Position numbers and translations under genes: made by a program. The notes below the pieces were generated by a model. It saw nothing but the letters and a program-made list of their open reading frames with translations. It made no database searches and had not been told where the DNA came from. Shown here piece after piece: positions 3,595 through 58,273 of a stretch of 64,000 nucleotides of DNA. How positions within the stretch are numbered: the first letter of the stretch is position 1; each line of letters starts with the position of its first letter. The stretch is from contig CAYYWQ010000001.1 in NCBI GenBank assembly GCA_964474825.1, positions 165,609 to 229,608 of the forward strand. The letters run 5' to 3'. Source of the stretch: an uncultured Candidatus Saccharibacteria bacterium (GTDB lineage: Bacteria > Patescibacteriota > Doudnabacteria > UBA920).

Positions 3595-3596
3595 CC

Positions 3597-3714
3597 TCTC
3601 TACTAAATACTAAAATAACTAAAAATACTAAAGCTATAATATTCCATATTACTATAATTTCTGGTTTCGTATTTAGTACATTTAGTCTACTTTAGTATTT
3701 AGTAGAAATAATTT
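3597..3714. repeat. Palindromic intergenic repeat, family A, coreless copy: ctactaaatactaaa...tttagtatttagtag inverted termini
   Basis: Termini are reverse complements. The same termini recur at 44891-44908, 50878-51012 and 58144-58272. Confidence 0.7.
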
Positions 3715-3715
3715 T

Positions 3716-6700
3716 ATGGATAAAATTATAAAAACCAACATGCATCCAAGAATAAAAATCCTAGCAGCTTTTGCCGGCACCTTGTTAGTCATGCTTATGC
3801 TCGGAGTGCAAACTTCGGACACCCTTTTGTATGTTGATAATATTTTAACTTCTACTGAATTAAACCAGCAGGGGAGAGTGTTAGGAGTTCAAACTGTAAC
3901 TTTTCAGCAGGGCAATAACGGCTACAGCGGTAATACTTCTGTGCAAATTTTTGGCCGGGCTCAGAACATTGGATATGACTACCAAACGTATAGGTATACC
4001 GGTTCCCTGCGTTATTATAATTTTGAACATTTTAATTTAGGAAATACTTCGTCATGGCAAAATGTTGTAAGCGCTAAGCTTAAACTGTATCGCACAGGGG
4101 GAAATGTTTATGCTCCTGCGGGAGTAAAAGTTTATTTAAGAAGAATAAATGACCCCGACAATTTAGGTTCTTCTTACGCAACCGGTTGGAAGGTAACGGC
4201 TGCGGACGGTTACCGAAACGGGGCTAACCAGGAATCTCGGGACGACTCCGTTAGTCCCGATGTTAAGTGGCAAAGTTCTGATCCAAGTTCCCCCGATGAT
4301 TTAGGCAATGACTATCTTCAAAATGTTTTAAAGCCCCTGGCCCAGTCTCCGTATTTTGTTCCAGCGCAGTCCGACCCTGTTGGCACCGAGTATATTTTGG
4401 ACGTTACGGACGATGTGGAATGTTTTAGGAGCGGGAATTGCAAAAACGAAGGTTGGACAACATATCATGAGGACGCGGCTAACATCCAAAATTTTATTGG
4501 CAACTCTCGGGCTGCTACGGCCAGTTACCGTCCATTGCTTGAGGTAACATTTACCAGTGGTGTTGTTTCCCCGACCCCGACGCCCACACCAACGCCAACA
4601 CCGACCCCAACTCCTACAGTAACACCAACTCCAACTCCCACTCCCACAGCAACCCCCACCGCATCGGTAACCCCAACCCCGACGCCTACAATTATTAGTA
4701 GTAGCGGTTTTTGGTATATTCGTCCAGACGGCGGCGACAGAAGCCAGTGTAACGGGCAAGTGGACGCATCATACCCGGGCAGCGGCACAAACCAGCCTTG
4801 CGGCTTTAAACACCCAAACTATCTTTTCACTACTGATCCCGGTGTCGGCCAGCCCGCAGAAATACCGACTTGGGTTATCGCGGGAGGGGATACTGTTATT
4901 ATTAAAAGAGGCGAATACCGAATCGGTTTTAAAATAAACGAAATCAAAGGCCACTGGAACTTTAAAGGTTGTCCTGGTGACGCCCCTAATTGTTTTAATC
5001 CCACTATTCCTGGCGGAACTGTTCAGAAACCGACTCGGATTTTAGGGGAAGGTTGGCAAAATCCTGATTCAGTAAAACCAAAATTAATGGGGGGAGTTTG
5101 GGTTGGCGCGGTTTTAAACCTAAAAGGAGCAAAAAATGTGGTAGTTGAAAATTTGGAAATCTCAGATTATGCACAATGCACTCCTACATCAAGCGGCCCC
5201 GATTTGTGTGTCCGCAGCGGCTTTCCCAAAAGCGACGCCGGACAAAACGGTATTGTTATAGACGCAAACACCGATAACCTAACATTACGTAATTTGAATA
5301 TCCACGGGCTTGCATCGGGTGGAATTTTTGGAGCTAATGCGGGTACTATAACAGCTGAAAATGTGCGTATTGCCGGTATTTCAAGTGGTGGTTGGAACTC
5401 CGATGATCCGGGTGATACATATGTAACCGGTACCCTAAATATAAAAAACCTACTATTAGAGTGGAGCGGCTGTGTGGAAGAATACCCTATAAGGAGCGCT
5501 TTGCCTTACTACAAATGTTATGACCAAGGCCATACTGGTTTTGGAGATGGCTTTGGTATTTTGGTTGGTGAAGGGGCCAAAATAAATATCGACCGTTCTG
5601 TTATACGCAATAATGTCCAAGATGGATTGGATATTCTTTATGTGCAAGGTAAGACCCCGGAAATAAAAATTACAAACTCCGCGTCTTACGCCAATGGTGG
5701 CCAGCAATGGAAATTTGGCCCGTTTAAAAAAGTGGATTTCTACAATAATTTAACCATCTCTAATTGTCGTCGAGGCGCCGAGGGTATGCCTGGACTGCCT
5801 GCAACTTTCAACGAAAATTTCACCGAATATTGCCGGGCTTTTGATGGGGTAATTTTAGCCTTCAAAGATGACGGCGTGGTAAATTGGTATAACAATACCT
5901 TTGTTGGCTATAATTCAACTATTTTTGACCTTCAGAGTGAAGTGGCTAATGAGGTATTTGATTCAAACGGAAGGCGTGGCGTGCTGCCAATAAAATCATC
6001 CACCATTTCTTCCAGTATAGAAAGATTGTTTCCTGACCCAAGTATAAAGCCGGATGGTAAACGTAAAACTTTTGACCTAAGCTATCTTCCTTTTGATATT
6101 ACCTATGCGGGGGTCAAGGTTAATGGAGTCAATCAAACTTCTGGAGAGCCAGGAAAGGACGCGTCGGCCGTGTGGTGGTGGAGCCCAGCAACTAAAACTC
6201 TCACTCAGGATCCTTCCGCTCCGGCTCTTGCCTCCAACGATGTCTTGTCTGTGATCTACACCCCTAAAGGATGGGCTGATAATGCCCGCTTTAATTATGG
6301 CAATAATATTTTCCGTGGCTATACCCGTTTGTTCAATACGTTGGTTCCTCCCAATTTGTTTTATACTTTTGGTGTAGACTTGGATAAGCTTATGCCTGCA
6401 ACGACCCGTAGAAAAAATTTAATTTGCGGTGTTCGTACGGTGGGCTGGAAGCCCGCGGCGGAAGAAACTTATTTAACCAGTTGCCCTGGAACGTGGCTAA
6501 AAAACGAACCGATGTCATTCACTAAAGAAAGTGATTTGGATGTTTTGGATTTAAGGTGGGCTGCCAATTCACCGGCAAAAGGCGCGGGGATTGACCTTGG
6601 TATTGGCCTTGGGCCAAATATTGGTGCCAACGTAGATTTGGTCGTTGCAAGTTTTCCTCCGTCTCCAACCCCCACCCCCATAGTAACCCCAACCCCTTCA

Positions 6701-7795
6701 TCAACTCCTACCCCCACACCAACCCCAACTCCCACTCCCACATCTATCCCAACTCCAACCCCGGACATCACTGCTCCTGTAATCTCTAACCTAAGAGGTA
6801 GTTTAATTACTTCCTCTTCTGCAGTCATTTCCTGGAATACCAATGAGAATTCGAACACTCAGGTAGAATATGGATTAACCAATAGTTATGGAGCCTCTAG
6901 TTCCCTGGTTACTTCACTAGCCCTTGGTCATTCAGTAACCCTCATAGGATTATCTCCTAATACTTTGTATCACTTTAGGGTTAAATCTAAAGACGGTGCT
7001 GGTAATTTAGCAGTATCTGCAGACTTTAGCTTTACCACAGAAGCTACAGTTGTTCCCACCCCAACTCCTTCAGTTACACCAACCCCAACTCCTACTGTTA
7101 CTACTAGCCAAGACCCAAATGCTACTCCCACCCCAACCCCAGTCCCAACAGTAACTCCAACCCCTGTGCCAACCCCCACTCCTAAAGTCATTGTCTTCAT
7201 CCCTCCTGCTACTATTCCTTCACAGATTGTATCCACTAGGTTCAAACTAATAGACCAAAAAGGTACGTTCTATGTAGTGGCAGATGGAGAGCGAAGGGGA
7301 GTAACTAACCCTGGCATGCTCTACAGCTATGGCTTAAGCTTTGCCGATGCCAAACCAGCCACAGAAGCAGAACAAACTTTTCCTGAAGCAGGGTTGATTC
7401 TTCCGGCTGACGGCAGTTTAGTTAAAAGCCAAGAAGACCCAACGGTTTACCTCATCACCCAGGGACAAAGATTTGCTTTTGTTTCAGCCAAAGTCTTCTT
7501 AGGTCTTGGCTTTAAGTTTAACTCTGTATTAGTTGTTACCAATCCTGAGCTTCAGTCTATGGCAAAGGCAGACAACTTAACTAATGAAGCCATGCCTCAC
7601 CCTTCAGGCTTTGACATTAACGACAAAGGAACTGTCTACTGGATAGGTTATGACGGCAAGAAGTACCCTTACCCGTCCCTTTCTGTTTACAACTCCTGGC
7701 ACATAGACAATGACTTTAGCAGGGTTGTTCCTGCTAACACGGCAGATCGTAATCTCCCTACGGGAGAGAATGTTAGTGAGAGGGTAGTGGAGTAG
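3716..7795 (+). CDS. Giant secreted/cell-surface protein, paralog of 334-3594, with the same domain order (DNRLRE-like, beta-helix, FN3-like, conserved C-terminal domain, PT linkers)
   Basis: C-terminal ~190 aa nearly identical to the upstream paralog (KLxxxKGTxY...YNSWHIDNDFSRVVPAN...SERVVE). FN3 block 'PDITAPVISNL...LYHFRVKSKDGAGN'. Beta-helix repeats. PT linkers. Confidence 0.75.
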   Translation: MDKIIKTNMHPRIKILAAFAGTLLVMLMLGVQTSDTLLYVDNILTSTELNQQGRVLGVQTVTFQQGNNGYSGNTSVQIFGRAQNIGYDYQTYRYTGSLRYYNFEHFNLGNTSSWQNVVSAKLKLYRTGGNVYAPAGVKVYLRRINDPDNLGSSYATGWKVTAADGYRNGANQESRDDSVSPDVKWQSSDPSSPDDLGNDYLQNVLKPLAQSPYFVPAQSDPVGTEYILDVTDDVECFRSGNCKNEGWTTYHEDAANIQNFIGNSRAATASYRPLLEVTFTSGVVSPTPTPTPTPTPTPTPTVTPTPTPTPTATPTASVTPTPTPTIISSSGFWYIRPDGGDRSQCNGQVDASYPGSGTNQPCGFKHPNYLFTTDPGVGQPAEIPTWVIAGGDTVIIKRGEYRIGFKINEIKGHWNFKGCPGDAPNCFNPTIPGGTVQKPTRILGEGWQNPDSVKPKLMGGVWVGAVLNLKGAKNVVVENLEISDYAQCTPTSSGPDLCVRSGFPKSDAGQNGIVIDANTDNLTLRNLNIHGLASGGIFGANAGTITAENVRIAGISSGGWNSDDPGDTYVTGTLNIKNLLLEWSGCVEEYPIRSALPYYKCYDQGHTGFGDGFGILVGEGAKINIDRSVIRNNVQDGLDILYVQGKTPEIKITNSASYANGGQQWKFGPFKKVDFYNNLTISNCRRGAEGMPGLPATFNENFTEYCRAFDGVILAFKDDGVVNWYNNTFVGYNSTIFDLQSEVANEVFDSNGRRGVLPIKSSTISSSIERLFPDPSIKPDGKRKTFDLSYLPFDITYAGVKVNGVNQTSGEPGKDASAVWWWSPATKTLTQDPSAPALASNDVLSVIYTPKGWADNARFNYGNNIFRGYTRLFNTLVPPNLFYTFGVDLDKLMPATTRRKNLICGVRTVGWKPAAEETYLTSCPGTWLKNEPMSFTKESDLDVLDLRWAANSPAKGAGIDLGIGLGPNIGANVDLVVASFPPSPTPTPIVTPTPSSTPTPTPTPTPTPTSIPTPTPDITAPVISNLRGSLITSSSAVISWNTNENSNTQVEYGLTNSYGASSSLVTSLALGHSVTLIGLSPNTLYHFRVKSKDGAGNLAVSADFSFTTEATVVPTPTPSVTPTPTPTVTTSQDPNATPTPTPVPTVTPTPVPTPTPKVIVFIPPATIPSQIVSTRFKLIDQKGTFYVVADGERRGVTNPGMLYSYGLSFADAKPATEAEQTFPEAGLILPADGSLVKSQEDPTVYLITQGQRFAFVSAKVFLGLGFKFNSVLVVTNPELQSMAKADNLTNEAMPHPSGFDINDKGTVYWIGYDGKKYPYPSLSVYNSWHIDNDFSRVVPANTADRNLPTGENVSERVVE

Positions 7796-7843: not shown

Positions 7844-8191
7844 CTACTTAACTAAACTTTTTACCATTTTGTCGAACTCTGTTGGGTATTGGACAGCAAG
7901 TTCGGCAAGCATTTTGCGGTTAATGAGAATGTTTTCTTTTTTCAAAAGTCCGGCAAACTTGCTCCAAGTGGTTCCGTTTTCTCTTAATGCGGCGTTGGTT
8001 CTAATGAGCCAAAGAGCACGGAAGTCGCGTTTCTTGTTGCGACGGTCGCGGTAGGCGTATTTGTCGGCATGAAGTAACGCTTCCCGGGCTAAAGGAAAAT
8101 TAGTAGAGCGGCGGTTGTCAAAACCCTTGGCTCTCTTAAGTAAATTTTTTCTGCGTTTGTGTGCGGCAACTCCGCGTTTGATTCTTGTCAT
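7844..8191 (-). CDS. rplT: 50S ribosomal protein L20
   Basis: MTRIKRGVAAHKRRKNLLKRAKGF... is a canonical L20 N-terminus; last gene of the infC-rpmI-rplT operon. Confidence 0.9.
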   Translation of the reverse strand: MTRIKRGVAAHKRRKNLLKRAKGFDNRRSTNFPLAREALLHADKYAYRDRRNKKRDFRALWLIRTNAALRENGTTWSKFAGLLKKENILINRKMLAELAVQYPTEFDKMVKSLVK

Positions 8192-8265
8192 ATGGTTAGC
8201 TGGTAGCTTGTAGGGGGTAGCTGGTAGGCCTGCATTGCTACAGACTACTAACTACTTCCTACTGG
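8192..8265 (-). repeat. Intercistronic structured repeat, copy 1 (rpmI-rplT spacer)
   Basis: About 70 nt nearly identical to the 8461-8534 spacer (ggtagcttgtag...ctacaagctac inverted repeats). Confidence 0.6.
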
Positions 8266-8460
8266 CTACTTGTAGGGAATTATACTCTTTAATTTATTGT
8301 GGCTTTTGTGGAGCAGTTGGTCACGGCGTTTGTTGGTAGTGGTTTTGCCGGATTCGCGGGAATTAAAATGACCCTGGCCTGTTGATCTTGCAATCAATTT
8401 TCCGGTCTTGGTCTTCTTTATTCTCTTGGCTGTTCCTTGGTGGGTTTTAACTTTGGGCAT
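8266..8460 (-). CDS. rpmI: 50S ribosomal protein L35
   Basis: MPKVKTHQGTAKRIKKTKTGKL... canonical L35. Confidence 0.9.
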   Translation of the reverse strand: MPKVKTHQGTAKRIKKTKTGKLIARSTGQGHFNSRESGKTTTNKRRDQLLHKSHNKLKSIIPYK

Positions 8461-8534
8461 AGTTTTAGTTGGTAGCTTGTAGTGAGTAGCTGGTAGGCCT
8501 GTATTGCTACAAGCTACTAACTACTTCCTACTGG
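8461..8534 (-). repeat. Intercistronic structured repeat, copy 2 (infC-rpmI spacer)
   Basis: Near-identical to 8192-8265. Confidence 0.6.
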
Positions 8535-9041
8535 CTATTTAGTTGGTGCTATTGTTATGCTCCAGGTGCCGCCCATTCTTTTAACCGGGACGTCTACTCT
8601 GTGAGCCACTGTTACCATTTTAATAAATTTTTCCAATTGCTGTTTTCCTAAGTCTCCAAAAGCCTGTTCACGGCCGCGCATACGGAGTTCTATTTTAACC
8701 ACATTGCCGTCTGCCAAAAATTCCATAACTTTGGCGGCTTTAATTCCCATGTCGTGTTCGCTTATGCGTACACTAATCCAAATGGTTTTAAGCTCTACCT
8801 TTTTGGCGTTCTTTTTTTGCTGTTGTTCCAGCTTCTTTTGCTGATAGCGGAACTTGGCAAAATCTATAAGTTTGCAAACAGGCGGGTTAGCTAAGGGCGA
8901 TACTTCCACTAAATCTAGCCCATTTTCCTGGGCTAAAGTCAGCGCTTCGCCTAAACGCATAACGCCAATCTGTTTGCCGTCGTCGCTTATAACTCGGACG
9001 TCGCCGGCTTTAATTTGATGGTTAACTCGGGTCTTTTGCAA
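8535..9041 (-). CDS. infC: Translation initiation factor IF-3 (true start may be a non-AUG codon)
   Basis: VRVISDDGKQIGVMRLGEALTLAQENGLDLVEVSPLANPPVCKLIDFAKFRYQQ... canonical IF-3. Confidence 0.9.
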   Translation of the reverse strand: MQKTRVNHQIKAGDVRVISDDGKQIGVMRLGEALTLAQENGLDLVEVSPLANPPVCKLIDFAKFRYQQKKLEQQQKKNAKKVELKTIWISVRISEHDMGIKAAKVMEFLADGNVVKIELRMRGREQAFGDLGKQQLEKFIKMVTVAHRVDVPVKRMGGTWSITIAPTK

Positions 9042-9097: not shown

Positions 9098-9216
9098 ACC
9101 CCGTAGAATCACATGGCAAACTATTTGTTATCAAAGTTAAACTTTCAGTTACCTTTTTCTATATAAATAAAATTTTGTGTACCGCTGGATTGCCATGTAG
9201 CTCTACGGGGCAAAGG

Positions 9217-10533: not shown

Positions 10534-10687
10534 GGCTTTTGTTTCAAGGGGTTATGTTTGCTTAATTTTACCATATTTTAGTTTACCCGCCTAAACTTTT
10601 CTTTTACCTATTAAAAGGGAGTGCTATTTATCATTTTGTTAATAAATAGACATTTTTATATATTAGGAAAAAGTTTTGGTGGGTGTA

Positions 10688-10770: not shown

Positions 10771-10808
10771 AACCCCAACCGTTTTACGGTCTGGGGTTAT
10801 TTTTTTAC
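10771..10808 (+). terminator. Leader intrinsic terminator/attenuator upstream of pyrC (aaccccaaccg-tttta-cggtctggggtt + T7)
   Basis: 11-bp stem followed by atttttttt, about 85 nt upstream of the pyrC ATG. Confidence 0.6.
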
Positions 10809-10893
10809 CCACCTTATCAATAATTATTATAGCGGGCAATCCGCCATAGTCAGCCCAGGCTGACGACGGCGGATGGGATAGATTTTTAGATAA

Positions 10894-12213
10894 ATGCTCA
10901 CCATTGAAGGAAATATAGTAAACATAGACGGAATAAATCGTGGCCGAATAGAAATAGGCGACAATGGTTTAATAACTTCGGTTGGCAAAGAAACAGGGAA
11001 TGCAGATGTTGTTTTAAAAGAAGAATTAATTTTTCCGGGGTTTATAGACGTTCATGTCCACGCGCGCGAATGTGTTGACCATAGCCAGGACTATAAAGAA
11101 GATTTTGCCACTGTTGGGGAGGCAGCCATAAACGGTGGCGTAGTGGCAATTGCCGATATGCCCAACAACCCTGTGGCGCCGGTAGATGAAAAAAGTTATG
11201 AGGAAAAATATCAGCTTACGAAAAAATGTCCGGTAGATGTTTTGTTATATGCTGGTATTGGTCCTAAAACCAATCCGTTTTCTGTGTCATTCCGAGCGAG
11301 TGCATCCGAGTCGAGGAATCCCTTAAATTTTGTTCATACTGATGACAAGGGATCCCTCCGCTCACCCTCAGATGCATTCGGGTTCGGTCGGGATGACAAG
11401 CGTCCAGTTCCTTACAAAGCTTTTATGGGAAAATCGGTGGGGGATTTGTTCTTTGAATCTTTCCAGCAGCTAGAAGAGGTTTTGGAAAAATACAGCGGCC
11501 AAAGCGTTAGTTTTCACTGCGAAGACCCTAAAGTGTTGGCGGAAAACCAAAATCAATCTTCACATGAAAAGCAACGTCCGCCACAGGCCGAAGTTTCAGC
11601 TGTGGATTTTGCGCTAAGAATGATTGAGAAATATAATTTGCAAGGAAAAATTTGCCATTGTTCAACTATGGAAGGGGTACAAAAAGTTATTGCGGCAAAA
11701 AAGCGCGGCCTACCAGTAACAGTAGAAGTTACGCCGCATCATTTGTACTTTAATGCAGAAGCCAAACTTCAAATGAATCCTCCACTGCGTAAGCAAGATG
11801 ATTGCTTAGCTTTGATTGAGGCTTTGAAAAAAGGGGAAATAGATTATTTAGCCACAGACCACGCGCCGCATACTATAGAAGAAAGAAATATAGGAATTTC
11901 AGGACTGCCGCATTTAGATACATATGGCCCGTTTGTGACATGGCTTATGACAGAACATAATTTTACTGCCCAAGATATTGCCAGGGTTTGTTCCCAAAAT
12001 CCCGGACAATTTCTAAATAAATTTATAAATGTAAAGTATGGTAAAGTAGAGGAAGGTTACGCAGGCAGCTTAACAGTAATAGACATGAAAAAGCCGGTTA
12101 AAATAGAAACCGCGATGCTAAAAACAAAGTGCGGTTGGTCGCCGTTTGAAGGAATTACGTTTCCGGGTAGTGTCGTAAAAACAATTATTAAAGGCAAGGT
12201 TTATGAACGGTAA
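10894..12213 (+). CDS. pyrC: Dihydroorotase, carrying an in-frame ~112-nt palindromic repeat insertion
   Basis: FPGFIDVHVHARE metal-binding motif; TDHAPH; first gene of the pyrC-carA-carB-pyrB cluster. Confidence 0.8.
   Translation: MLTIEGNIVNIDGINRGRIEIGDNGLITSVGKETGNADVVLKEELIFPGFIDVHVHARECVDHSQDYKEDFATVGEAAINGGVVAIADMPNNPVAPVDEKSYEEKYQLTKKCPVDVLLYAGIGPKTNPFSVSFRASASESRNPLNFVHTDDKGSLRSPSDAFGFGRDDKRPVPYKAFMGKSVGDLFFESFQQLEEVLEKYSGQSVSFHCEDPKVLAENQNQSSHEKQRPPQAEVSAVDFALRMIEKYNLQGKICHCSTMEGVQKVIAAKKRGLPVTVEVTPHHLYFNAEAKLQMNPPLRKQDDCLALIEALKKGEIDYLATDHAPHTIEERNIGISGLPHLDTYGPFVTWLMTEHNFTAQDIARVCSQNPGQFLNKFINVKYGKVEEGYAGSLTVIDMKKPVKIETAMLKTKCGWSPFEGITFPGSVVKTIIKGKVYER
11286..11397. repeat. Palindromic repeat element, family B (RPE-like), inserted in-frame within pyrC
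   Basis: gtcattccgagcgagtgcatccgag...ctcagatgcattcgg...gggatgac. Imperfect long inverted repeat. Homologous copies at 16477-16526 and 20516-20634. Confidence 0.75.
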
Positions 12214-13237
12214 ATTAGTATTAAAAGACGGTAGCGTTTACGAAGGAGCTTCTTTTGGTGCGGACAATTCTGCCTCCGGCGAGGTGGTTTTTGCCACAGG
12301 CATGGTTGGTTACCCCGAAGGCATAACAGACCCAAGTTTCCGTGGGCAAATTTTAGTAATGACCTATCCGCTTATTGGCAATTATGGCGTGCCTGACAAA
12401 AAGTTTTGGGAGTCTAGTAAAATGCAAATTAGCGGCCTTATTGTCTGTAATTATATAGACACGCCTTCGCACCATTCTTCTAGGCAAACATTGTCGCAAT
12501 GGTTAAAAAAGAGCGGTGTGCCGGCTTTGGAAATTAAAGATACTAGGGGGCTTACGCAGAAATTGCGGACGCATGGGGTAATGCTTGGTAAGGTGGCTTT
12601 TGGAAAAGATGATGGGGATTTTCAGGATCCAAATTTAAGAAATCTGGTGGCAGAAGTTTCCTGCAAAAAACCTTACACAATCGGTTCTGGAAAAAAATCA
12701 GTTGTGCTAATAGATTGCGGCGCTAAACTAAACATTGCCCGCAGTTTAGCAAAACGCGGACTTAAAGTAATTGTTGTGCCTTGGAATACCGACGTTACTA
12801 AGCTTAAGCAGAAAATTTCAGGCGTAGTTATTTCTAACGGTCCTGGCGACCCAACAATGGCGGATGCTACGATTGCTAATGTAAAAAAGATTTTGGCAAA
12901 GAAAATTCCGACTTTTGGTATTTGTTTAGGTAATCAAATTTTGGCTTTAGCTTCTGGCGGCACAACCTACAAATTAAAATTTGGGCATAGGGGACAAAAC
13001 CAACCCGCGGTTTTAGCCGGCACAAAAAAAGCAATTCTGACAACCCAGAACCACGGTTTTGCCGTAGGTAAAATCCCCAAAGGTTTTAAACAATGGTTTT
13101 ATAACGCTAACGACAAGACCAACGAAGGTATAATCCATAAAACTTTGCCTTTTATGTCCGTGCAGTTCCACCCAGAAGCCACGCCGGGACCAACGGACGC
13201 TGACTGGCTGTTTGATTATTTCTTAGAAAAAATATGA
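12203..13237 (+). CDS. carA: Carbamoyl-phosphate synthase small (glutamine amidotransferase) subunit
   Basis: GICLGNQILALASGG...HGFAV triad region; N-terminus VYEGASFGA...GEVVFATGMVGYPEGITDPSFRGQILV. Confidence 0.9.
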   Translation: MNGKLVLKDGSVYEGASFGADNSASGEVVFATGMVGYPEGITDPSFRGQILVMTYPLIGNYGVPDKKFWESSKMQISGLIVCNYIDTPSHHSSRQTLSQWLKKSGVPALEIKDTRGLTQKLRTHGVMLGKVAFGKDDGDFQDPNLRNLVAEVSCKKPYTIGSGKKSVVLIDCGAKLNIARSLAKRGLKVIVVPWNTDVTKLKQKISGVVISNGPGDPTMADATIANVKKILAKKIPTFGICLGNQILALASGGTTYKLKFGHRGQNQPAVLAGTKKAILTTQNHGFAVGKIPKGFKQWFYNANDKTNEGIIHKTLPFMSVQFHPEATPGPTDADWLFDYFLEKI

Positions 13238-16200
13238 AAAAATTTAAGAAAATTTTAATACTAGGAAGCGGCGCGCTTAAAATTGGCGAGGCCGGGGAGT
13301 TTGATTATAGCGGCTCGCAAGCTATTAAAGCTTTAAAGGAAGAAGGAATAAAGTCGGTTTTAATAAACCCGAACATAGCGACCATTCAGACTTCCAAACT
13401 GCTTGCTGACGAAGTTTATTTTTTGCCGGTTAACCATTACTTTGTGGAAAAGGTTATTGCTAAAGAAAAGCCGGACGGTATAATGCTTTCTTTTGGCGGG
13501 CAGACTGCGCTTAACTGTGGTTTGGCTTTGCAAAAAAGCGGCACGCTAAAAAAATACGGGGTAAAAGTTTTGGGCAGCCCGGTTAAAAGCATTGAACTTA
13601 CGGAAGACAGGCAATTGTTTGCCGACCATTTGCGCGCCTTAAATATTCCTGTGCCGCCAAGCGGCACGGCAGAAACCTATGACCAGGCTTTAAAAATTGT
13701 TAAAAAAATTAGTTTTCCAGTAATGGTACGCGCGGCTTATGCCTTGGGTGGGCAAAAGAGTGGCGTTGCCCGAAACCTCCGTGAATTAAAAGAAATTGTG
13801 GAAGGCGCTCTGGCTATATCTTCCCAAGTCTTAATAGAAAAATATTTACACCATTTTAAAGAATTAGAATACGAAGTCGTGCGCGATCAATTTGATAATA
13901 CTGTTACGGTTTGTAACATGGAAAATTTGGATCCGCTGGGAATCCATACCGGTGACAGCATTGTTGTGGCGCCAAGTCAGACTTTAACTAACACGGAATA
14001 TCATGGCCTTAGGGAGGCTAGTATTAAAATTGTAAAATCTTTAGGAATAGTAGGCGAGTGTAATGTGCAGTACGCGCTTAATCCAAAACCCAAAAGAGGG
14101 GAAATGGATTACTATGTTATTGAAGTCAATGCTCGTTTGTCCCGTTCATCTGCCTTGGCTTCTAAAGCAACTGGATATCCCCTTGCCTATGTTGCGGCAA
14201 AATTAGCCCTCGGTAAAAGTCTTTTAGAAGTTAAAAATAAAATTACCCAGGTTACCCAAAGCTTTTTTGAACCGGCGCTGGATTATTGCGTAGTCAAAAT
14301 CCCCCGCTGGGACTTGGAAAAATTCAAAGGGGCGGAAGAAAAAATTGGCTCGGCTATGAAATCCGTAGGCGAAGTTATGGCCATTGGCCGGAGTTTTGAA
14401 GAAGCCCTTCAAAAAGCTGTGCGCATGCAAAGCGGTCAAACCGAAAGCGTGACTGACAACGGCTTTAAAGACAAAACTGAGTTGGATCATTTTTTGTCTG
14501 TTCCGACTCCCAAACGTTTGTTTGCTGTTGCCCAAAGCTTAATGCACGGTATGACTGTTGCAAAAGTTCATAGTAAGACAGGCATTGACCCGTGGTTTTT
14601 ATACCGTTTGCAAAATATTGCAAACGCTCAAAAAGGATTATCTAAAAGTTCTGATTTAGATAAGCTGACACTCACACAATTAAAACAATTAGGTTTTTCG
14701 GACAAAAAAATTGCCCAGGTTTGCGGCAAGAAAGAATTAGATATTCGTGAGCTGCGCAAGAAGTTCAATATCCGCCCCTCAGTATTTCAAATAGATACTT
14801 TAGCAGGCGAAGTCCCGGCCAAAACTAATTATTTGTATTTAACATATCATGGTAATCATGACGACGTAGAGTCATTAGGAAAAAATGCAGTGCTGGTTTT
14901 AGGCAGCGGCCCATACCATATTGGCAGCAGCGTTGAATTTGATTGGTCTTGCGTGCACGCGGCTATGGCACTTAAGCGCCACAAAAAACAATCTATCATA
15001 ATTAATTGTAACCCGGAAACAGTGTCAACCGATTACGACATGTCTGACAGGTTGTATTTTGAAAATTTGTCATTTGAAACCGTTGCTGACATTTACGAAT
15101 TTGAGCATCCGGAAGGGGTTGTTATTTCCGTGGGCGGACAGAGGCCAAATAATTTGGCGGGCAAGCTTTCCAAGGCAGGTTTTAAAATTTTAGGAACGTC
15201 CGCGGCCAACATTGACCGCGCAGAAGACCGGAACAAGTTTTCTGCTTTGTTAGATAAATTAAATATTCTACAGGCCGAATGGCAAAGCTTTTCTACAATT
15301 TCCGATGCAGAGAAATTCGCGGACAAAGTTGGTTTTCCTGTGTTAGTGCGTCCTTCTTACGTTTTGTCCGGCAGTGCCATGAGTGTTTGCTACAACAAAC
15401 AGCAATTGGAAGACTTTGTCAGTAAGGCTGCCATACTTAGTCCCGAATATCCGGTAACAATTTCCAAATATATAGAGAACGCCAAAGAACTGGAATTTGA
15501 CGCTGTGGCCCAAAACGGCCAGGTGGTAATTTACGCCATAAGCGAGCACGTGGAAAACGCCGGCGTGCATAGCGGCGACGCGACTATTGTTTATCCCACC
15601 CAGCGCGTTTACGCTTCCACAGAACAGCAGTTAAAAATAATTGCCAAACAACTGGCTAAAGAACTTAAAGTTACAGGGCCATTTAACATCCAATTTTTGG
15701 TAAAAGACAACCGCCCATATGTAATTGAAGTTAATTTGCGCGCCAGCAGGACTTTCCCGCTTTTAAGTAAAGCCTTGGACAAGAACTTTCCGGAACTTGC
15801 GGTAGACAGTTTTTTTGGCAAAGCACCAACAGACGTTTACGAACGCCCGGCCGCTGTGGTTGTAAAGTCCCCGCAATTTTCTTTTGCCCGCCTTTCCGGA
15901 GCAGACCCCGTCCTTCGGGTAGAAATGGCCTCTACAGGAGAAGTGGCGTGTTTTGGAAAGACTTATGACGAAGCTTTGCTTAAATCTATTATGTCTGCCA
16001 ATAGCTTTGATTTTAATAAAAAGGCTGTGCTGCTGTCTTTAGGTGGAGAATTAAATAAGGCTAAGTTTTTGGAACAGGCAGGGGATTTATTTACCTTAGG
16101 CTATAAAATTTTCGCCACAGACACTACCGCAGAGTACTTAAAAAAGCAGGGGATGGAATGTCATACAGTCAGGAAAGCGCACGAAAAGTCCCAGGGCCAT

Positions 16201-16452
16201 GACAATTTTTTGGATATTGTTGAAGGCAAGCAGGTGGCCTTTGTGGTAAACTTAAGCCAACCAAGCAGCCGGCTTAGGGATGAGCGCGTTAAGCGGCAAT
16301 TAAGCGACGGCTTCCGCATACGCCGCGCCACTGTAGACAACCAAATTCCTTTGTTTACAGACCTGCACTTAGCCAGAGCTTTTGTAAAAGCCTTAAAGAA
16401 CTACGAAATGGGGGACTTAGAAATAAAAAGCTACAAACAATATTTAAAATGA
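13234..16452 (+). CDS. carB: Carbamoyl-phosphate synthase large subunit
   Basis: ILILGSGALKIGEAGEFDYSGSQA...; duplicated ATP-grasp halves; 1072 aa. Confidence 0.9.
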   Translation: MKKFKKILILGSGALKIGEAGEFDYSGSQAIKALKEEGIKSVLINPNIATIQTSKLLADEVYFLPVNHYFVEKVIAKEKPDGIMLSFGGQTALNCGLALQKSGTLKKYGVKVLGSPVKSIELTEDRQLFADHLRALNIPVPPSGTAETYDQALKIVKKISFPVMVRAAYALGGQKSGVARNLRELKEIVEGALAISSQVLIEKYLHHFKELEYEVVRDQFDNTVTVCNMENLDPLGIHTGDSIVVAPSQTLTNTEYHGLREASIKIVKSLGIVGECNVQYALNPKPKRGEMDYYVIEVNARLSRSSALASKATGYPLAYVAAKLALGKSLLEVKNKITQVTQSFFEPALDYCVVKIPRWDLEKFKGAEEKIGSAMKSVGEVMAIGRSFEEALQKAVRMQSGQTESVTDNGFKDKTELDHFLSVPTPKRLFAVAQSLMHGMTVAKVHSKTGIDPWFLYRLQNIANAQKGLSKSSDLDKLTLTQLKQLGFSDKKIAQVCGKKELDIRELRKKFNIRPSVFQIDTLAGEVPAKTNYLYLTYHGNHDDVESLGKNAVLVLGSGPYHIGSSVEFDWSCVHAAMALKRHKKQSIIINCNPETVSTDYDMSDRLYFENLSFETVADIYEFEHPEGVVISVGGQRPNNLAGKLSKAGFKILGTSAANIDRAEDRNKFSALLDKLNILQAEWQSFSTISDAEKFADKVGFPVLVRPSYVLSGSAMSVCYNKQQLEDFVSKAAILSPEYPVTISKYIENAKELEFDAVAQNGQVVIYAISEHVENAGVHSGDATIVYPTQRVYASTEQQLKIIAKQLAKELKVTGPFNIQFLVKDNRPYVIEVNLRASRTFPLLSKALDKNFPELAVDSFFGKAPTDVYERPAAVVVKSPQFSFARLSGADPVLRVEMASTGEVACFGKTYDEALLKSIMSANSFDFNKKAVLLSLGGELNKAKFLEQAGDLFTLGYKIFATDTTAEYLKKQGMECHTVRKAHEKSQGHDNFLDIVEGKQVAFVVNLSQPSSRLRDERVKRQLSDGFRIRRATVDNQIPLFTDLHLARAFVKALKNYEMGDLEIKSYKQYLK

Positions 16453-16476
16453 CAAACATTAATTTATAATTTAGTT

Positions 16477-16526
16477 GTCATCCCGACCGACGAGTGCATC
16501 CGAGGAGCGGAGGGATCCCTTAAACT
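16477..16526. repeat. Family B palindromic repeat, short copy abutting the pyrB start codon
   Basis: gtcatcccgaccgacgagtgcatccgaggagcggagggatccctt matches the arms of the 11286-11397 element. Confidence 0.65.
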
Positions 16527-16529
16527 TAT

Positions 16530-17435
16530 ATGAAAAATTTAATTAGCGTAAGCCAGTTAAAAAAAGCCGATGTCCAAAGAATATTGGCTTTGGCGGAAAA
16601 AATAGAGAAATCAAAAAAACAGAACAAAGTCAGAGAAAGTTTAAAGAATAAAGTTGTTGCCTGTTTGTTTTTTGAACCCAGCACCCGGACAAGGCTTTCC
16701 TTTGAAACTGCGGCTTTACGTTTGGGCGCCAGGGTTGTCAGTATGGAAAACGGCAGCGAATCTTCGTCGGCTTTTAAAGGGGAATCTATAACAGACACCA
16801 TTAAAATAGTTAATGGCTACGCGGATTTTATTGTTATGAGGCACCCAAAAGACGGCTCCGCGGAAATTGCGGCCAAAGCCGCTAAAGTGCCATTTATAAA
16901 TGCAGGAGACGGCGGTAATCAGCATCCTACCCAGGCGCTTTTGGACGCCTATACTATTTGGAAAAAGTTCAAAAGACTTTCCAATTTACGTTTAGCTTTT
17001 GGGTTTGACCCTAAGCATTCCCGGACAATTAAATCACTTTGCCAAATTCTTTCGCTTTACGACAATAACAGTTTTACTTTTATTTGCCCAAAACAGCTGG
17101 ACCCGCCCAAGGAATTTTTGGACAAATTAAAAAAAAGCGGCGTTCAATACAAAATTGAACGCGACCTGGAAAAAGTTTTAGACAGTGATATTTTGTATTT
17201 AAACCGTTTGCAGGGCGAGCGTTTTGCCAGTAAAAAAGAGTTTGAGCAGCTAAGGCATAAATACACCTTAAGGGCCGCTATGCTCAAAGGCAAAAAATCT
17301 TTAATAATGAACCCCTTGCCTCGAATAGACGAAATGGAAGAAAAGGTTGACGACCTGCCCAACGCAATTTATTTTGAACAGGCCCATAACGGGCTTTACG
17401 TTCGCATGGCCTTGCTTCAAATGTTGTCTGAGTAA
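16530..17435 (+). CDS. pyrB: Aspartate carbamoyltransferase catalytic subunit
   Basis: STRTRLSFETAALRLGA and HPTQALLD motifs. Confidence 0.9.
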   Translation: MKNLISVSQLKKADVQRILALAEKIEKSKKQNKVRESLKNKVVACLFFEPSTRTRLSFETAALRLGARVVSMENGSESSSAFKGESITDTIKIVNGYADFIVMRHPKDGSAEIAAKAAKVPFINAGDGGNQHPTQALLDAYTIWKKFKRLSNLRLAFGFDPKHSRTIKSLCQILSLYDNNSFTFICPKQLDPPKEFLDKLKKSGVQYKIERDLEKVLDSDILYLNRLQGERFASKKEFEQLRHKYTLRAAMLKGKKSLIMNPLPRIDEMEEKVDDLPNAIYFEQAHNGLYVRMALLQMLSE

Positions 17436-17444
17436 GATGTTTAC

Positions 17445-18158
17445 TTAATTAATGTCACTGTAAACAGTGACATTTTTTATTTCGTGCCAGGCCGCGGCCG
17501 GCAGTTTAGCGAAAGATGTTTTGTTAACCAAAACAGCATCTAACTTTTCTTTTTTCTCCGGGCCGCAGACAAAACCAATGCCTTCGTCTATCAGCTTAAA
17601 AAAAGTTACAGTTGTTGTTATTCTTTGCGGATATTGGTTTTTTCCTGTAGCCTCGTAGGCAACTGTCCAGGCTTCGGACTCAAATAAATCGGCAAACTTT
17701 TTTTCATCATCAGTATATGGGAATATGCCGGCAGTGTGTCCGTCGGCGCCCATTCCTAGTGTTGCAATTATTATCCCATCAGTATTATCTTCCCGCCATT
17801 TTTTTAAGCGCCCTTCCCAACGCTCTCTAACAGTTTCAATTGTATCTTCTGGCCTGGGCAAGGTGCCAATAAAAGCGCATTCCATTTCCAGGGCGTCTTT
17901 GTAAAAGTCAGTTTTTTGGAATTGGGAAAAATTATTCACTTTGGCGTCTTGGCTGAAACGGTCGTCCAGCATGCCAACGGTTAAATGTTCACTTAAACTG
18001 GTTTTGCCCGCGTACTCCAAAATAGGCAAAGCTGAGCCTGAGGAAAGCAGAAGTAAAACTGGCCGGTCTTTGTTTGAAGCCAGTAGCTTGTTTAGTGCCT
18101 CGCCGGCAGCTGCTGCCACGGCTTCTATATTTGGTTCTTTAATGACCTGAAAACTCAT
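17445..18158 (-). CDS. pgl: 6-phosphogluconolactonase-like (NagB/Pgl sugar-phosphate isomerase family)
   Basis: GMGADGHTAGIFP motif. Confidence 0.65.
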   Translation of the reverse strand: MSFQVIKEPNIEAVAAAAGEALNKLLASNKDRPVLLLLSSGSALPILEYAGKTSLSEHLTVGMLDDRFSQDAKVNNFSQFQKTDFYKDALEMECAFIGTLPRPEDTIETVRERWEGRLKKWREDNTDGIIIATLGMGADGHTAGIFPYTDDEKKFADLFESEAWTVAYEATGKNQYPQRITTTVTFFKLIDEGIGFVCGPEKKEKLDAVLVNKTSFAKLPAAAWHEIKNVTVYSDIN

Positions 18159-18163
18159 TTATT

Positions 18164-18841
18164 TTAAGATTTTATTGCAAATGGATTAAAGTCAGTCTTG
18201 CTGTCGTAATAGTCCTCGCTCTCAGCGCGTTTTAAAAAGTTTATAACAGCGTAAGTTAAAGGCGTGGCCGCTATTTCAAACAAGACTTTAAAAACATAAA
18301 TTGTTCCAACTAAGTTTAGTAGAGCGTCAAAAGGCATTGTACCGTAAAAGGCAATAAGCGAAAAAGTAATCGAATCTATACCTTCGCCAGCAATTGTTGA
18401 GCCAATGGTTCGCATCCACAAATCTTTTCCGCCGCTCCAAATTTTCATTTTTGCCAAAACAAAAGAGTTTAAAAATTCACCGGCCCAATAGGCGCAAATG
18501 CTGGCAAAAATAATCCGTGGCACAAACCCAATAATTTGCTCATAAGCGGCCTGGCCGGTCCAATCGGGTGCCGCAGGCAAATACTGTACAACCGCGAAAG
18601 TCGCGCCTGTTAAGACTAAAGCCCCAAAGCCTACCCAAATTGCGCGCCTGGCTCTTTTGTAGCCATAAACTTCCGTTAAAATGTCCCCAAAAATATAGGC
18701 AAGGGGAAACAGCACTGTGCCGCCGTCAAAATTAAAACCCCAGACTTGTGAAATTTTTGCCGAAGCAACATTGGAAATAATTAGCACTGCTACGAAAAAA
18801 GCAAGAATAATGTCAAAGTACCTATAGGTTTTTTGGTCCAT
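18164..18841 (-). CDS. YhhQ/DUF165-family membrane protein (putative queuosine-precursor transporter)
   Basis: Polytopic; the YGYKRARRAIWVGFGALV region resembles the YhhQ family. Confidence 0.5.
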   Translation of the reverse strand: MDQKTYRYFDIILAFFVAVLIISNVASAKISQVWGFNFDGGTVLFPLAYIFGDILTEVYGYKRARRAIWVGFGALVLTGATFAVVQYLPAAPDWTGQAAYEQIIGFVPRIIFASICAYWAGEFLNSFVLAKMKIWSGGKDLWMRTIGSTIAGEGIDSITFSLIAFYGTMPFDALLNLVGTIYVFKVLFEIAATPLTYAVINFLKRAESEDYYDSKTDFNPFAIKS

Positions 18842-18874
18842 ATTTATTAGCCGTCGTGCGACTTAATTTATTAA

Positions 18875-19987
18875 TTAGATAATTACTCTTTTTAAATACT
18901 GCGGTATCTTAACCAAGATTTCATAAGGGATAGTATGGCAAAGTTTAGCTATGTTGTCTACACTGTTGGGGTCTTTGGGATTTTTGCTCATTATTGTTAC
19001 CGGCATGTCCAAACGGGGATTACTAACTTTTGAAATATCTATAGACGTTATATTCATACTAACTCTTCCGAGTATAGGACAAACCGTTTTCCCCACCATC
19101 ATAAAACCTTTACTAGAAAGTCTTCTGTCCAAGCCTTCGTGGTAGCCGCCTGCCACTGTGGCTACATTCATGTTTTTTGGCGCTGTAAAGGTTATATTGT
19201 ATCCAATTTTTTCGCCTTTTTTAAGTTTGCGAATAGAACTAATTACAGAACGCATTTCTAAGGCAGGTTTTAGGTTAAGTGGATTTCGCGGAGAAAAATT
19301 ATAGCCGTATAAAGAAATTCCCAAGCGCCCAATGTTGGAATCAATTTTTCCATTCAAATCCGCGCCCGCGCTGTTGCTTAAGTGTTTGTATTTTATGGAA
19401 GGTAATTCTTTAGGAAGTTTTTTAGCCAAACTATTCCATAACGCAATTTGCTTATGGCTAAATTCGTCTGTGTCGCCGTCTGCGTCTGCTAAGTGTGAAG
19501 ACATTCCTTCCACTTTAATAAATTTATTTTTTTGAATAATCTTAACTGCTTCATCAAGCTGCTGTGGAAGCAGTCCTTGCCTGCGCATGCCAGTGTCTAT
19601 TTTTAAATGAAAGACAACAGGCTTTATAATTTTGCGATTTATATCCTTTAACTGGTCCAGGCTAATAATTCCAAAAGAAATATTACGTAGCTTTTGATTG
19701 TTAATGCTTTCTGTGGTGCAGTAACCCAAAACCAAAAGGGGAGTTTTTATTTTGGCTTTCCGAAGTTCGCATGCCTCAAATATGGAATTAACCATAAAAA
19801 AAGGCGAGCCTTGCCCGTCTAAAATTTTACCAATTTCCACAAGTCCATGACCGTAACCATTGCTCTTAATAACCGGCGCAAATTTAACACTCCTGTAAGC
19901 GCGCTGAAATTGGCGAAGATTATGTAAAATATTGTCTTTATAAACCAAAACCTCTATTAGAGTTTCGTAAGGATTGCCTAATGTCAT
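18875..19987 (-). CDS. alr: Alanine racemase. Start reassigned to the ATG at 19987, because the ORF-caller's extension to 20290 overlaps the KH-domain gene
   Basis: VIKSNGYGHG PLP-lysine motif; C-terminal GRVSMNITSID. Confidence 0.8.
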   Translation of the reverse strand: MTLGNPYETLIEVLVYKDNILHNLRQFQRAYRSVKFAPVIKSNGYGHGLVEIGKILDGQGSPFFMVNSIFEACELRKAKIKTPLLVLGYCTTESINNQKLRNISFGIISLDQLKDINRKIIKPVVFHLKIDTGMRRQGLLPQQLDEAVKIIQKNKFIKVEGMSSHLADADGDTDEFSHKQIALWNSLAKKLPKELPSIKYKHLSNSAGADLNGKIDSNIGRLGISLYGYNFSPRNPLNLKPALEMRSVISSIRKLKKGEKIGYNITFTAPKNMNVATVAGGYHEGLDRRLSSKGFMMVGKTVCPILGRVSMNITSIDISKVSNPRLDMPVTIMSKNPKDPNSVDNIAKLCHTIPYEILVKIPQYLKRVII

Positions 19988-20089
19988 ATAAGCATTATAC
20001 CAAACTGGTATTGAAATAGAAAAGAAAGTGAGGTAGAATACTGCACGGGCTCCAAGGGGAGCCAATCTCAAGTTGAAGGATGGTTCAAG

Positions 20090-20320
20090 ATGAAGGATTT
20101 GGTTGAACGTATCGTGAAGGTGCTCGTTGATATCCCGGAACAAGTTGATGTCCGGGAGGTGAGCGGTGCGGAAGTAACGGTTTTTGAAGTTCGGGTGGCC
20201 CCTTCCGATACCGGAAAGGTAATAGGCAAACAAGGGCGTACTGTGCGTTCGATCCGCACTCTGTTGGGCGCGGCGGGTATGAAGGATCACAGGCGTTACT
20301 CTGTGGAGATCTTGGAGTAG
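20090..20320 (+). CDS. KH-domain RNA-binding protein (UPF0109/YlqC-like)
   Basis: MKDLVERIVKVLVDIPEQVDVREV...VAPSDTGKVIGKQGRTVRSIRTLL... closely matches the conserved KH-domain protein family; local GC is higher than its surroundings. Confidence 0.8.
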   Translation: MKDLVERIVKVLVDIPEQVDVREVSGAEVTVFEVRVAPSDTGKVIGKQGRTVRSIRTLLGAAGMKDHRRYSVEILE

Positions 20321-20448
20321 CTATGCTTCTTAGGCTACTAGTTGTGATGACCGGGCTGGTCATTCTATATTGCATGTTCCGTCTGGGACTTTCGTAACCG
20401 CGCCGCGGCCCGCAGTTTGTGGCCGCCGCTCAACCAAGCAAAAACCGG

Positions 20449-20510
20449 TAAAGACACAGTTTGCGCAGTACGCGCCGACTAGTTCTTTACCGGTTTTTCA
20501 ATTTACCCTT
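20449..20510 (+). terminator. Long stem-loop (13-bp stem aaaaccggtaaag/ctttaccggtttt, ~31-nt loop) followed by a T-run; candidate terminator after the KH gene
   Basis: Inverted repeat seen directly; loop is atypically long. Confidence 0.4.
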
Positions 20511-20515
20511 TTTGT

Positions 20516-20634
20516 GTCATTCCGAGCGAGTGCAGCCGAGAGAGGAATCCCTTAACTCTTATAATCATCCGCAAAGATATCCCTCCACTCTTCCTCAGAT
20601 GCATTCGGAGTAAGTTGGGATGACAAAGGGATGT
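20516..20634. repeat. Family B palindromic repeat, full-length intergenic copy
   Basis: gtcattccgagcgagtgcagccgag...gaatccctta...gatgcattcgg...gggatgac. Confidence 0.75.
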
Positions 20635-20637
20635 TAT

Positions 20638-58272: not shown

Positions 58273-58273
58273 T

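Follow-up and report, generated by a model that had tools for sequence, protein, structure and literature searches.

The dihydroorotase gene pyrC of an uncultured Patescibacteria bacterium (positions 10894–12213, plus strand) lies in a 64-kb stretch (64,000 nucleotides) of contig CAYYWQ010000001.1, hereafter the window. The gene is an intact 439-residue open reading frame (ORF), followed downstream by intact carA, carB and pyrB genes, and it harbours an imperfect palindrome of 112 nucleotides (nt) at positions 11286–11397 of the plus strand, with a GTCAT...ATGAC core, which belongs to a group of palindromic elements that we designate family A. An earlier note on this DNA had described the palindrome as an in-frame insertion resembling the Rickettsia palindromic elements (RPEs); the extent and sequence of the palindrome, the encoded peptide and the unbroken frame of the ORF proved to be exactly as given there.

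Architecture and position of the palindrome in pyrC

The element is built of a 41-nt 5′ arm (11286–11326, plus strand; GTCATTCCGAGCGAGTGCATCCGAGTCGAGGAATCCCTTAA), a 20-nt central spacer corresponding to the hairpin loop (11327–11346, plus strand) and a 3′ arm complementary to the 5′ arm (11347–11397, plus strand; AAGGGATCCCTCCGCTC...TCGGTCGGGATGAC), giving the layout GTCATTCCGAGCGAGTGCATCCGAGTCGAGGAATCCCTTAA-(20-nt spacer)-AAGGGATCCCTCCGCTCACCCTCAGATGCATTCGGGTTCGGTCGGGATGAC. The identical 5′ arm is present in copies from other Patescibacteria metagenome-assembled genomes (MAGs; loci L002, L007, L012, L013 and L020), and the spacer is variable, its length and sequence differing in every family-A copy. 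Three nested arm pairs span nearly the whole length of the element (11285–11299 with 11384–11398, 87% complementary; 11297–11310 with 11367–11380, 86%; 11308–11324 with 11347–11363, 82%). When folded as single-stranded RNA, the element forms one long hairpin of −48.9 kcal/mol, as compared with a mean of −34.6 ± 3.7 kcal/mol for shuffled controls (z = −3.9), and none of 200 shuffles equalled it. Its GC content is 0.53, versus 0.41 for the window and likewise for the rest of pyrC, and inspection of the sequence revealed neither CGTC nor GACG anywhere in the pyrC element.

Counting the GT at 11284–11285, the net insertion amounts to 114 nt, or 38 codons, which are stop-free in the frame used, so that pyrC stays a single ORF. 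Read in frame, the element would encode (V)SFRASASESRNPLNFVHTDDKGSLRSPSDAFGFGRDD, and the conceptual ORF translation runs across it as ...NPFSVSFRASASESRNPLNFVHTDDKGSLRSPSDAFGFGRDDKRPVPYK.... Because a separately built Logan assembly (SRR14271365) also encodes this 439-residue protein, an assembly artefact is unlikely. A word-index protein search with the 42-residue insert peptide returned no matches, and an exhaustive HMMER search with the same peptide returned three long repetitive proteins with weak multi-stretch matches, which we consider uninformative.

The host gene is a dihydroorotase of class I/III, as indicated by the family hidden Markov model, the amidohydrolase TIM-barrel fold and the metal-ligand residues. 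PyrC matches TIGR00857 with 284 bits (cutoff 279) and the Pfam family Amidohydro_1, with no Pfam family outside the amidohydrolases. All residues that are invariant in an alignment of 120 sequences are kept (for example His54, His56, His208, His255 and Asp322), as is the nearly invariant Lys175. A search of ~5.8 billion proteins placed the gene among pyrC of Patescibacteria (Paceibacteria, Nomurabacteria, Doudnabacteria and similar lineages). The best solved relative is the Methanocaldococcus jannaschii dihydroorotase (7uof), which is also the best Foldseek match of the PyrC model (template-modelling score 0.81/0.84).

Typical PyrC orthologues are 401–412 residues long, and more than 100 orthologues share a conserved linker of 12–13 residues (GIGPxTxPLSxxV) versus 50 residues in the window protein. 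Of the 120 best homologues, about 90 have 12 residues (IGPxTKPLSKKV) between LLYAG and PYK, and the metagenome orthologues with a locatable linker all carry the native GIGPxTxPLSxxV motif, the insert being present in none. An alignment of the closest PyrC proteins places the insert between conserved blocks. In the alignment with 7uof, the interval from residue 122 to 173 of the query corresponds to residues 121 to 135 of the chain, the query being longer by ~38 residues. Both comparisons bear out the earlier claim that about 38 residues have been added between conserved dihydroorotase blocks.

An AlphaFold model computed from the 120-sequence alignment (mean predicted local distance difference test score, pLDDT, 92.5; predicted template-modelling score 0.90) replaced a previous model from 23 sequences that was unusable (pLDDT 66). 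The only region of low confidence is the insert, with ten-residue block means of 61, 42, 46 and 62 over residues 131–170 and values below 50 at residues 140–150 and 154–161. The insert is modelled between the strand formed by residues 115–121 and the strand formed by residues 174–177, which bears Lys175, and ends ~5 residues ahead of the latter. The model thus suggests that the chain makes an excursion where two barrel strands are normally joined by a very short linker, the remaining enzyme looking normal. A surface placement is likewise predicted, because of the low confidence of the insert and the topology of the fold. The orthologue comparison that the earlier note had proposed therefore came out as it anticipated, with the segment absent from most orthologues.

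Family A in the window and in other genomes

The 25-nt 5′ end of the element recurs at position 20516 with one mismatch (chance expectation 0), where it begins a second full copy of 109 nt (20516–20624, plus strand) that is intergenic between two minus-strand genes and has no open frame on the plus strand. The earlier note had recognized this copy but extended it to 20634, and we place its 3′ boundary at 20624–20626. A third occurrence, described there as a copy at 16477–16526 abutting the pyrB start codon, is indeed a related repeat, but it comprises a single inverted 3′ arm (16477–16523, minus strand; reverse complement of the 3′ arm, GTCATCCCGACCGA...GCGGAGGGATCCCTTAA, likened to it by eye) that lies in the carB–pyrB spacer and ends 6 nt ahead of the pyrB ATG at 16530. 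The window thus holds two full copies and one solo arm, two of the three being intergenic.

Directly upstream of the intergenic full copy, a hairpin with 27-nt arms flanked by A/T runs (20440–20498; AAAAACCGGTAAAG...CTTTACCGGTTTTT) looks like a bidirectional terminator.

A scan with the pattern GTCATTCCGAGCGAG-N(4-34)-GAGGAATCCCTTAA, using one genome per GTDB species, detected 27 family-A loci, which, together with the 2.5 copies in the window, confirms that the family is dispersed. The MAGs concerned are labelled Doudnabacteria, Magasanikbacteria, Liptonbacteria, Saccharibacteria or 'Patescibacteria group', except for two without a Patescibacteria label, namely CAXXWT01 ('bacterium', with megabase-scale contigs) and one Gammaproteobacteria. 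Complete copies measure 97–154 nt. All of them begin and terminate with (T)GTCAT...ATGAC(A) and have in common two boxes further in, GAGGAATCCCTTAA and TTAAGGGATCCCTCC, on either side of the free spacer. The position preceding the element is a T in 24 of 25 copies, within a T-rich upstream flank, and positions +1 to +3 are A in most copies. These flanks may be part of the inverted repeat, or the element may favour sites where a T-run meets an A-run, as in the native CTT TCT|AAA AAA. The family-A DNA pattern had no match in viral contigs, leaving a phage vector without evidence.

In CAXXWT01 (L009, L015, L019, L022, L025, L029 and L031; contigs of 0.5–1.5 Mb), a 144-nt family-A-like element is embedded in a composite repeat of ~420 nt that is 95–99% identical between loci and has at least 10 matches on six contigs.

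Family-A copies are mostly intergenic, and two lie inside recognizable enzymes other than PyrC, which answers the question raised in the earlier note of whether further copies are in frame within coding sequences. At L017, the element sits near the C-terminus of the cofactor-independent phosphoglycerate mutase (iPGM) and is read in a different frame (GVIPSESDEPRNPL...GVGRDDK); residues 466 to 513 of the query correspond to residues 472 to 474 of 1ejj. At L032, it is inserted in MnmA in the opposite strand orientation, the interval from residue 227 to 283 corresponding to residues 225 to 232 of 9hlv. All five genic copies (pyrC in the window, L002 and L003, iPGM and MnmA) are of whole-codon length and stop-free in the frame used, whereas every plus-strand frame is closed in the seven copies that are clearly intergenic. 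In the master sequence, two of the three frames are open through each arm and TTAA boxes close the third. Family A is therefore not built to code, and the genic copies appear as survivors of a filter, as expected if they are translated. Selection acting on a translated sequence would lead to just this pattern of open genic and closed intergenic copies.

These frames bear on the possibility that the element is not translated, being either removed from the mRNA in an intron-like manner or bypassed by the ribosome, so that the protein would be a normal 401-residue PyrC. Programmed translational bypassing has precedents in T4 gene 60 and the yeast mitochondrial 'byps', the hairpin of the pyrC element is very stable, and the conservation of the arm DNA far exceeds the need of a disordered loop. 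Yet excision or bypass would not need whole-codon, stop-free inserts, which the genic copies display in two frames and both orientations while the intergenic copies are closed. The codons on either side of the element (TCT GTG ... GAC AAG) do not form a matched take-off and landing pair. An Rfam scan of positions 10800–21000 detected no intron or ribozyme, its sole match being a sub-threshold chance match elsewhere; the element is thus not a described RNA family. RNAalifold applied to 11 copies yielded a long consensus hairpin with 26 pairs and 0 compensatory changes. As for intein or intron features, the insert is only 38 residues long and brings no further Pfam domain to PyrC. We consider an untranslated element very unlikely.

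Local hairpins are also apparent within the arms, pairing ATTCC with GGAAT in the 5′ arm and ATCCC with GGGAT in the 3′ arm. These pairs co-vary, in that L006 and CAXXWT01 have ATTCC...GGAAT in both arms, but this amounts to only one or two independent changes, and a cloverleaf-like reading of family A with two local hairpins is suggestive only.

Repeated insertion at one codon of pyrC

The alignment of the closest PyrC proteins revealed inserts at the same linker in ~20 of 120 homologues. Family A (SFRAS...GRDDK) occupies the linker in the window, P0001 and P0005. A GTAG-tagged element, family B (CSVPIYR...PINGHAT), occupies it in at least nine proteins, P0003, P0007, P0011, P0015, P0017, P0018, P0020, P0021 and P0024, and a third type (LLDAGAADGRPRSR) in P0008–P0010, besides several others. 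The inserts add 5 to 49 residues and their peptides are unrelated (SFRAS..., CSVPIYR..., LLDAGAADGRP...).

The DNA of the empty site, read from the more distant orthologues L033, L034 and L099, is CCT CTT TCT AAA AAA GTT CCT TAT AAA. The filled site of the window reads CCG TTT TCT GT[GTCAT...ATGAC]AAG CGT CCA GTT and that of L002 reads CCT TTT TCT AT[GTCAT...ATGAC]AAA CTC AAA GTT. Family B is found at the same codon in L113, L114 and L116, the last reading CCA TTT GAG C[GTAGCGTGCCGATTTATCGG CTGCAG CCCATAAATGGGCACGCTAC]A AAG CAG GTG.

Family-A arms are far more similar than the genes that contain them, since the elements of the window and L002 match at 45 of 46 and 35 of 36 arm positions (~98%), whereas the remaining pyrC is 69% identical and its third codon positions 46%. 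In neighbour-joining trees computed with the inserts removed, the three family-A PyrC proteins grouped in 0 of 200 bootstraps. P0005 is nearer to the family-B-bearing P0003 (76%) than to the window (68%), and the PyrC most similar to that of the window, P0002 (74%), has an empty site, with P0004 also carrying the canonical linker. The near-identity of the arms, set against 69% for pyrC, together with the lack of monophyly of the family-A PyrC proteins, identifies the linker as a recurrent insertion hotspot. As the tree is weakly supported, we limit the claim to at least two separate family-A arrivals at this codon or the replacement of one family by another.

The same comparison argues against a native, lineage-specific loop inherited vertically by a PyrC clade from one ancient event, in which case the palindromy would be incidental. 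Such a loop would agree with the presence of SFRAS...GRDDK at exactly the same position in P0001 and P0005, which the earlier note had envisaged as the mark of a native segment. However, these two proteins carry it as the same mobile element, given the divergence between arms and gene, the absence of a family-A clade in any bootstrap and the empty site of P0002. The same DNA is moreover intergenic in the window and present in unrelated genes and lineages, and the bearers are never monophyletic, their closest relatives P0002 and P0004 having an empty canonical linker. We regard a native loop as extremely improbable.

The three diverged lineages also speak to whether the insertion inactivated pyrC, leaving a young pseudogene that still looks intact. 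Patescibacteria often lack complete nucleotide biosynthesis, and the insert precedes the strand bearing the nearly invariant Lys175 by only ~5 residues, both of which would fit inactivation. Against this, the 439-residue ORF keeps every residue invariant across 120 homologues, carA, carB and pyrB are intact downstream, and the model folds confidently around the insert. Furthermore, the three lineages have kept their family-A-bearing pyrC open over ~30% protein divergence, which therefore suggests long-term purifying selection on the inserted genes. We give the pseudogene explanation very little credence.

Repeated occupation of the site in many relatives could instead indicate that the insert has been co-opted, either as a protein loop (for instance contacting aspartate transcarbamoylase) or as an mRNA hairpin tuning the pyrC–carAB–pyrB transcript. 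The solo arm 6 nt ahead of the pyrB start would fit the latter, as would the proposal that repetitive extragenic palindromic (REP) sequences act as RNA elements downstream of genes (PMC3733652). But the site hosts unrelated families, and since its peptides are unrelated and range from 5 to 49 extra residues, no common insert function is conserved. In addition, free variation is seen in the spacer and in portions of the arms, the element shows no covariation and the pLDDT of the insert is low. Co-option thus appears unlikely.

Family B provides a view of how such elements may be mobilised. At L113, pyrC terminates at a TAG that belongs to a family-B left arm (GTAGCGTGCCGATTTATCGG at 11374), followed by a gene for a 137-residue protein (11402–11815), a matching right arm immediately after it (CCCATAAATGGGCACGCTAC, 11816–11835) and a complete family-B doublet (11842–11897), the whole spanning 11374–11897 between pyrC and carA. 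The 137-residue protein matches Pfam Y1_Tnp and scores 76 bits against NF047646, the REP-associated tyrosine transposase (RAYT) family, just below the cutoff of 80, as compared with 24 bits against IS200. This arrangement is a REPtron as in the systems of REP sequences and REP doublets forming hairpins (REPINs) (PMC3116915, PMC3733652). L116 harbours a second Y1 gene, flanked by its own inverted repeats.

Members of the 23S_rRNA_IVP family (PF05635) are encoded adjoining or near pyrC at L115 (11306–11701) and L003 (1156–1797), in the position occupied by the transposase gene in L113. They may be another mobile cargo using the pyrC–carA spacer.

Taken together, our data favour an in-frame insertion of a mobile palindrome into pyrC, to which we assign a probability of about 0.82. 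The pyrC stretch would be a copy of a non-autonomous palindromic mobile element widespread in Patescibacteria, family A, whose two inverted arms of ~40–50 nt around a variable spacer would make it similar in build to a REPIN or to a MITE, a miniature transposable element with inverted repeats. It would have transposed into the short linker between barrel strands β3 (LLYAGI) and β4 (PYKAF, with Lys175), mobilised, by analogy with family B, by a Y1 (HUH) RAYT. The ribosome most likely reads through the element, yielding a dihydroorotase with an extra surface excursion of ~38 residues that is probably disordered and would be tolerated rather than needed. The same linker would serve as a recurrent landing and retention site for family A, for the GTAG-tagged REP doublet of family B and for other short inserts, and this hotspot may reflect a permissive loop combined with a T-run/A-run target (CCT CTT TCT | AAA AAA).

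Several points weigh against this interpretation. Target-site duplications are not visible, and the inverted T...A flanks could equally belong to the inverted repeat itself. That the insert is translated and that enzyme activity is retained are deduced from sequence reasoning. The single-gene tree is weakly resolved (0.2–0.4 support for the nearest clade of the window), and within that clade insertion followed by precise loss would fit the sequences as well as repeated insertion. Arms that are nearly identical in distant lineages could be the outcome of constraint on their sequence and not of recent arrival. Searches of the window and of the 27 family-A loci by tblastn with two Y1 proteins and by an HUH-motif scan revealed no Y1/HUH gene, nor could a transposase of another type be linked to family A. 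Finally, the tag that RAYTs are known to cleave is GTAG, whereas the family-A ends are GTCA/TGAC.

That a Y1/HUH enzyme mobilises family A by acting on its single-stranded hairpins is accordingly, in our view, about an even bet; the idea is suggested by the architecture, the sites in common with family B and the lack of visible target duplications. Three copies without a 3′ arm within 260 nt (L010, L014 and L016, two of them near the end of the locus) are accompanied by neither a transposase-like ORF nor a downstream 3′ arm, and the composite repeat of CAXXWT01 contains no transposase.

Further in-frame insertions occur elsewhere in these genes. A second hotspot in pyrC follows the PHHLYF motif (equivalent to ~11750–11790 in the window, where it is empty) and is filled in P0003, P0005, P0010, P0017, P0020, P0021, P0024 and P0046. 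The inserts there include GTCATTGCGAG...GCAATGAC elements, the type GTCATTGCGAGG...GCAATGAC (VIARSAADEAI...AMT), family B and ...SAEALAKAD..., and the PyrC of P0005 reaches 501 residues because it has three such inserts. CarA is 373–390 residues long in relatives (L003/L004, L113, L114, L115 and L116), compared with 344 residues in the window (12203–13237). The carA linker located after GVMLGK..F and before F.DPNLRNLV holds in-frame inserts of several palindromic families in relatives (for example VILRP..SEAEESL...SFTGVQDD and MSLRVQPKQS...ALLAMT) and is empty in the window and in L002.

Related systems and wider reading

In-frame palindromic repeats are a textbook oddity of Rickettsia, and catalogues of intragenic REPs exist for a small number of Proteobacteria and Verrucomicrobia. 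RPE-1 to RPE-10 are presented, in the account that PMC10969869 gives of Ogata et al. 2000 (Science 290:347) and 2002 (Genome Res 12:808), as in-frame palindromic elements of Rickettsia. Family A resembles them as a palindromic repeat of ~100–150 nt of which a small, host-dependent genome has several copies, inserted in frame in unrelated housekeeping genes without disrupting the ORF, with a recognizable encoded peptide, a fold-compatible position and both intergenic and genic copies. It differs in that its host phylum is Patescibacteria, in that one codon of one gene has been struck by at least two to three element families in related genomes, and in that its sister family B is physically tied to a RAYT, whereas we know of no transposase for RPEs. 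Family A also lacks the CGTC end tag reported for RPE-4 and RPE-6 (PMC3733652). It is not a member of the RPE families, from which host, sequence and tag set it apart, a separation drawn from these three features and not from a direct comparison with RPE consensus sequences. The resemblance to RPEs put forward in the earlier note consequently stands as an analogy, based on an in-frame palindrome in several genes, and not as family membership.

REP and REPIN elements are associated with RAYT transposases (Bertels & Rainey 2011, PMC3116915), and a survey by Di Nocera et al. 2013 (PMC3733652) lists intragenic REPs from Opitutus, Thauera, Rickettsia and others and already notes GTAG REPs donating TAG stop codons, as well as REPtrons. 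Similarly to REPINs, family A consists of two inverted units around a short spacer that form a long hairpin, and solo units occur too. As with REPs, most copies in the window and the 27 loci lie outside genes, and the few that sit within ORFs encode 20–80 extra residues. Family B, for its part, is GTAG/CTAC-tagged; in L113 it lends pyrC its TAG stop codon and lies on both sides of a RAYT-like gene. In contrast to REPINs, all family-A copies have (T)GTCAT...ATGAC(A) ends and neither GTAG nor CGTC, the 64 kb of this genome covered here and the 27 loci yielded no cognate RAYT for family A, and its arms are ~40–50 nt long as opposed to 20–40 nt for classical REPs. By analogy, family A works like an RPE or an intragenic REP.

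In-frame fusions are also documented for MITEs, as with QMITE1 of Coxiella (PMC5896051), and for intragenic enterobacterial repetitive intergenic consensus (ERIC) sequences (PMC2759123, as cited in PMC10969869). Family A shares with MITEs a small, non-autonomous organization with terminal inverted repeats (TGTCAT/ATGACA plus long complementary arms), no transposase gene, multiple copies and an occasional in-frame location within ORFs. Neither a target-site duplication nor a parent insertion sequence was identified for family A, and it departs from these MITEs in that the insertion affects the core of an essential metabolic enzyme and not a gene end. In open-access text, we found no paper on such elements in Patescibacteria (the candidate phyla radiation, CPR) and none containing the arm sequence. 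This kind of element is already known, since the RPE and intragenic REP phenomena have been described (PMC10969869, PMC3733652), but a single-codon hotspot used by several families could be something more.

A broader proposal, which we consider doubtful and offer only tentatively, joins these observations. It holds that family A belongs to a new superfamily of Patescibacteria hairpins with GTCAT...ATGAC ends and covarying inner stems (ATTCC/GGAAT, ATCCC/GGGAT and ATTGC/GCAAT), and that these hairpins and GTAG REP doublets are actively targeted to T-run/A-run sites coding for loops. The β3–β4 and post-PHHLYF sites of pyrC and the interdomain linker of carA would then be genuine hotspots of integration, which one family after another fills, vacates and fills again. 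If so, element insertion would be a systematic and ongoing source of 'extra' protein segments in CPR proteomes, paralleling Rickettsia but with an identifiable single-strand, RAYT-type transposition mechanism.

The insertion in pyrC extends the phenomenon of in-frame palindromes to a second, unrelated group of reduced, host-dependent bacteria. It offers a natural experiment in which one codon of an essential enzyme is empty or occupied by family A or family B in close relatives, with a RAYT adjoining in one of them. This makes it possible to ask whether site choice or a selection filter shapes the distribution of inserts, and whether the encoded loops are translated and tolerated. Such inserts also have a practical effect on CPR metagenome bins, where protein alignments and gene calls become inflated and fragmented.

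The window contains other repeats. An AT-rich palindromic family of ~125 nt (TCTACTAAATACTAAA ... TTTAGTATTTAGTAGA) is represented by three full copies and one partial copy (3586–3724, 44887–44915, 50865–51019 and 58133–58279), apparently all at gene ends or between genes. Further long imperfect palindromes with arms of 24–40 nt (51859–51948, 9099–9210, 46649–46806, 10585–10684 and 43522–43666) are all intergenic and unrelated in sequence to family A. Relative to its size, the genome seems to hold many hairpin repeats. Two 95-nt direct repeats that are 84% identical (8177–8271 and 8446–8540), each enclosing a palindrome (TAGCTGGTAGCTTGTAG...CTACAAGCTACTAACTA), coincide with the beginnings of two ORFs, probably rplT (L20) and infC (IF3) as judged by synteny with the related loci. 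These repeats might serve as a leader or in regulation, or might be mobile as well.

Repeats coding for Pro/Thr with a period of 12–18 nt (CCNACN; 1156–1274, 2395–2510, 4553–4695, 6650–6789 and 7043–7185) are found inside two very large ORFs (304–3594 and 3686–7795) and look like PT-rich linkers of surface proteins. A 300-nt segment is duplicated between these large ORFs (3043–3342 and 7244–7543, 71% identical). Lastly, the start of the ORF at 41674–43158 (...FLAYVRVSSKDQSRGTSLDEQK...) resembles by eye the N-terminus of a serine recombinase, and the stretch of short ORFs around it at 38–43 kb may be an integrated element.

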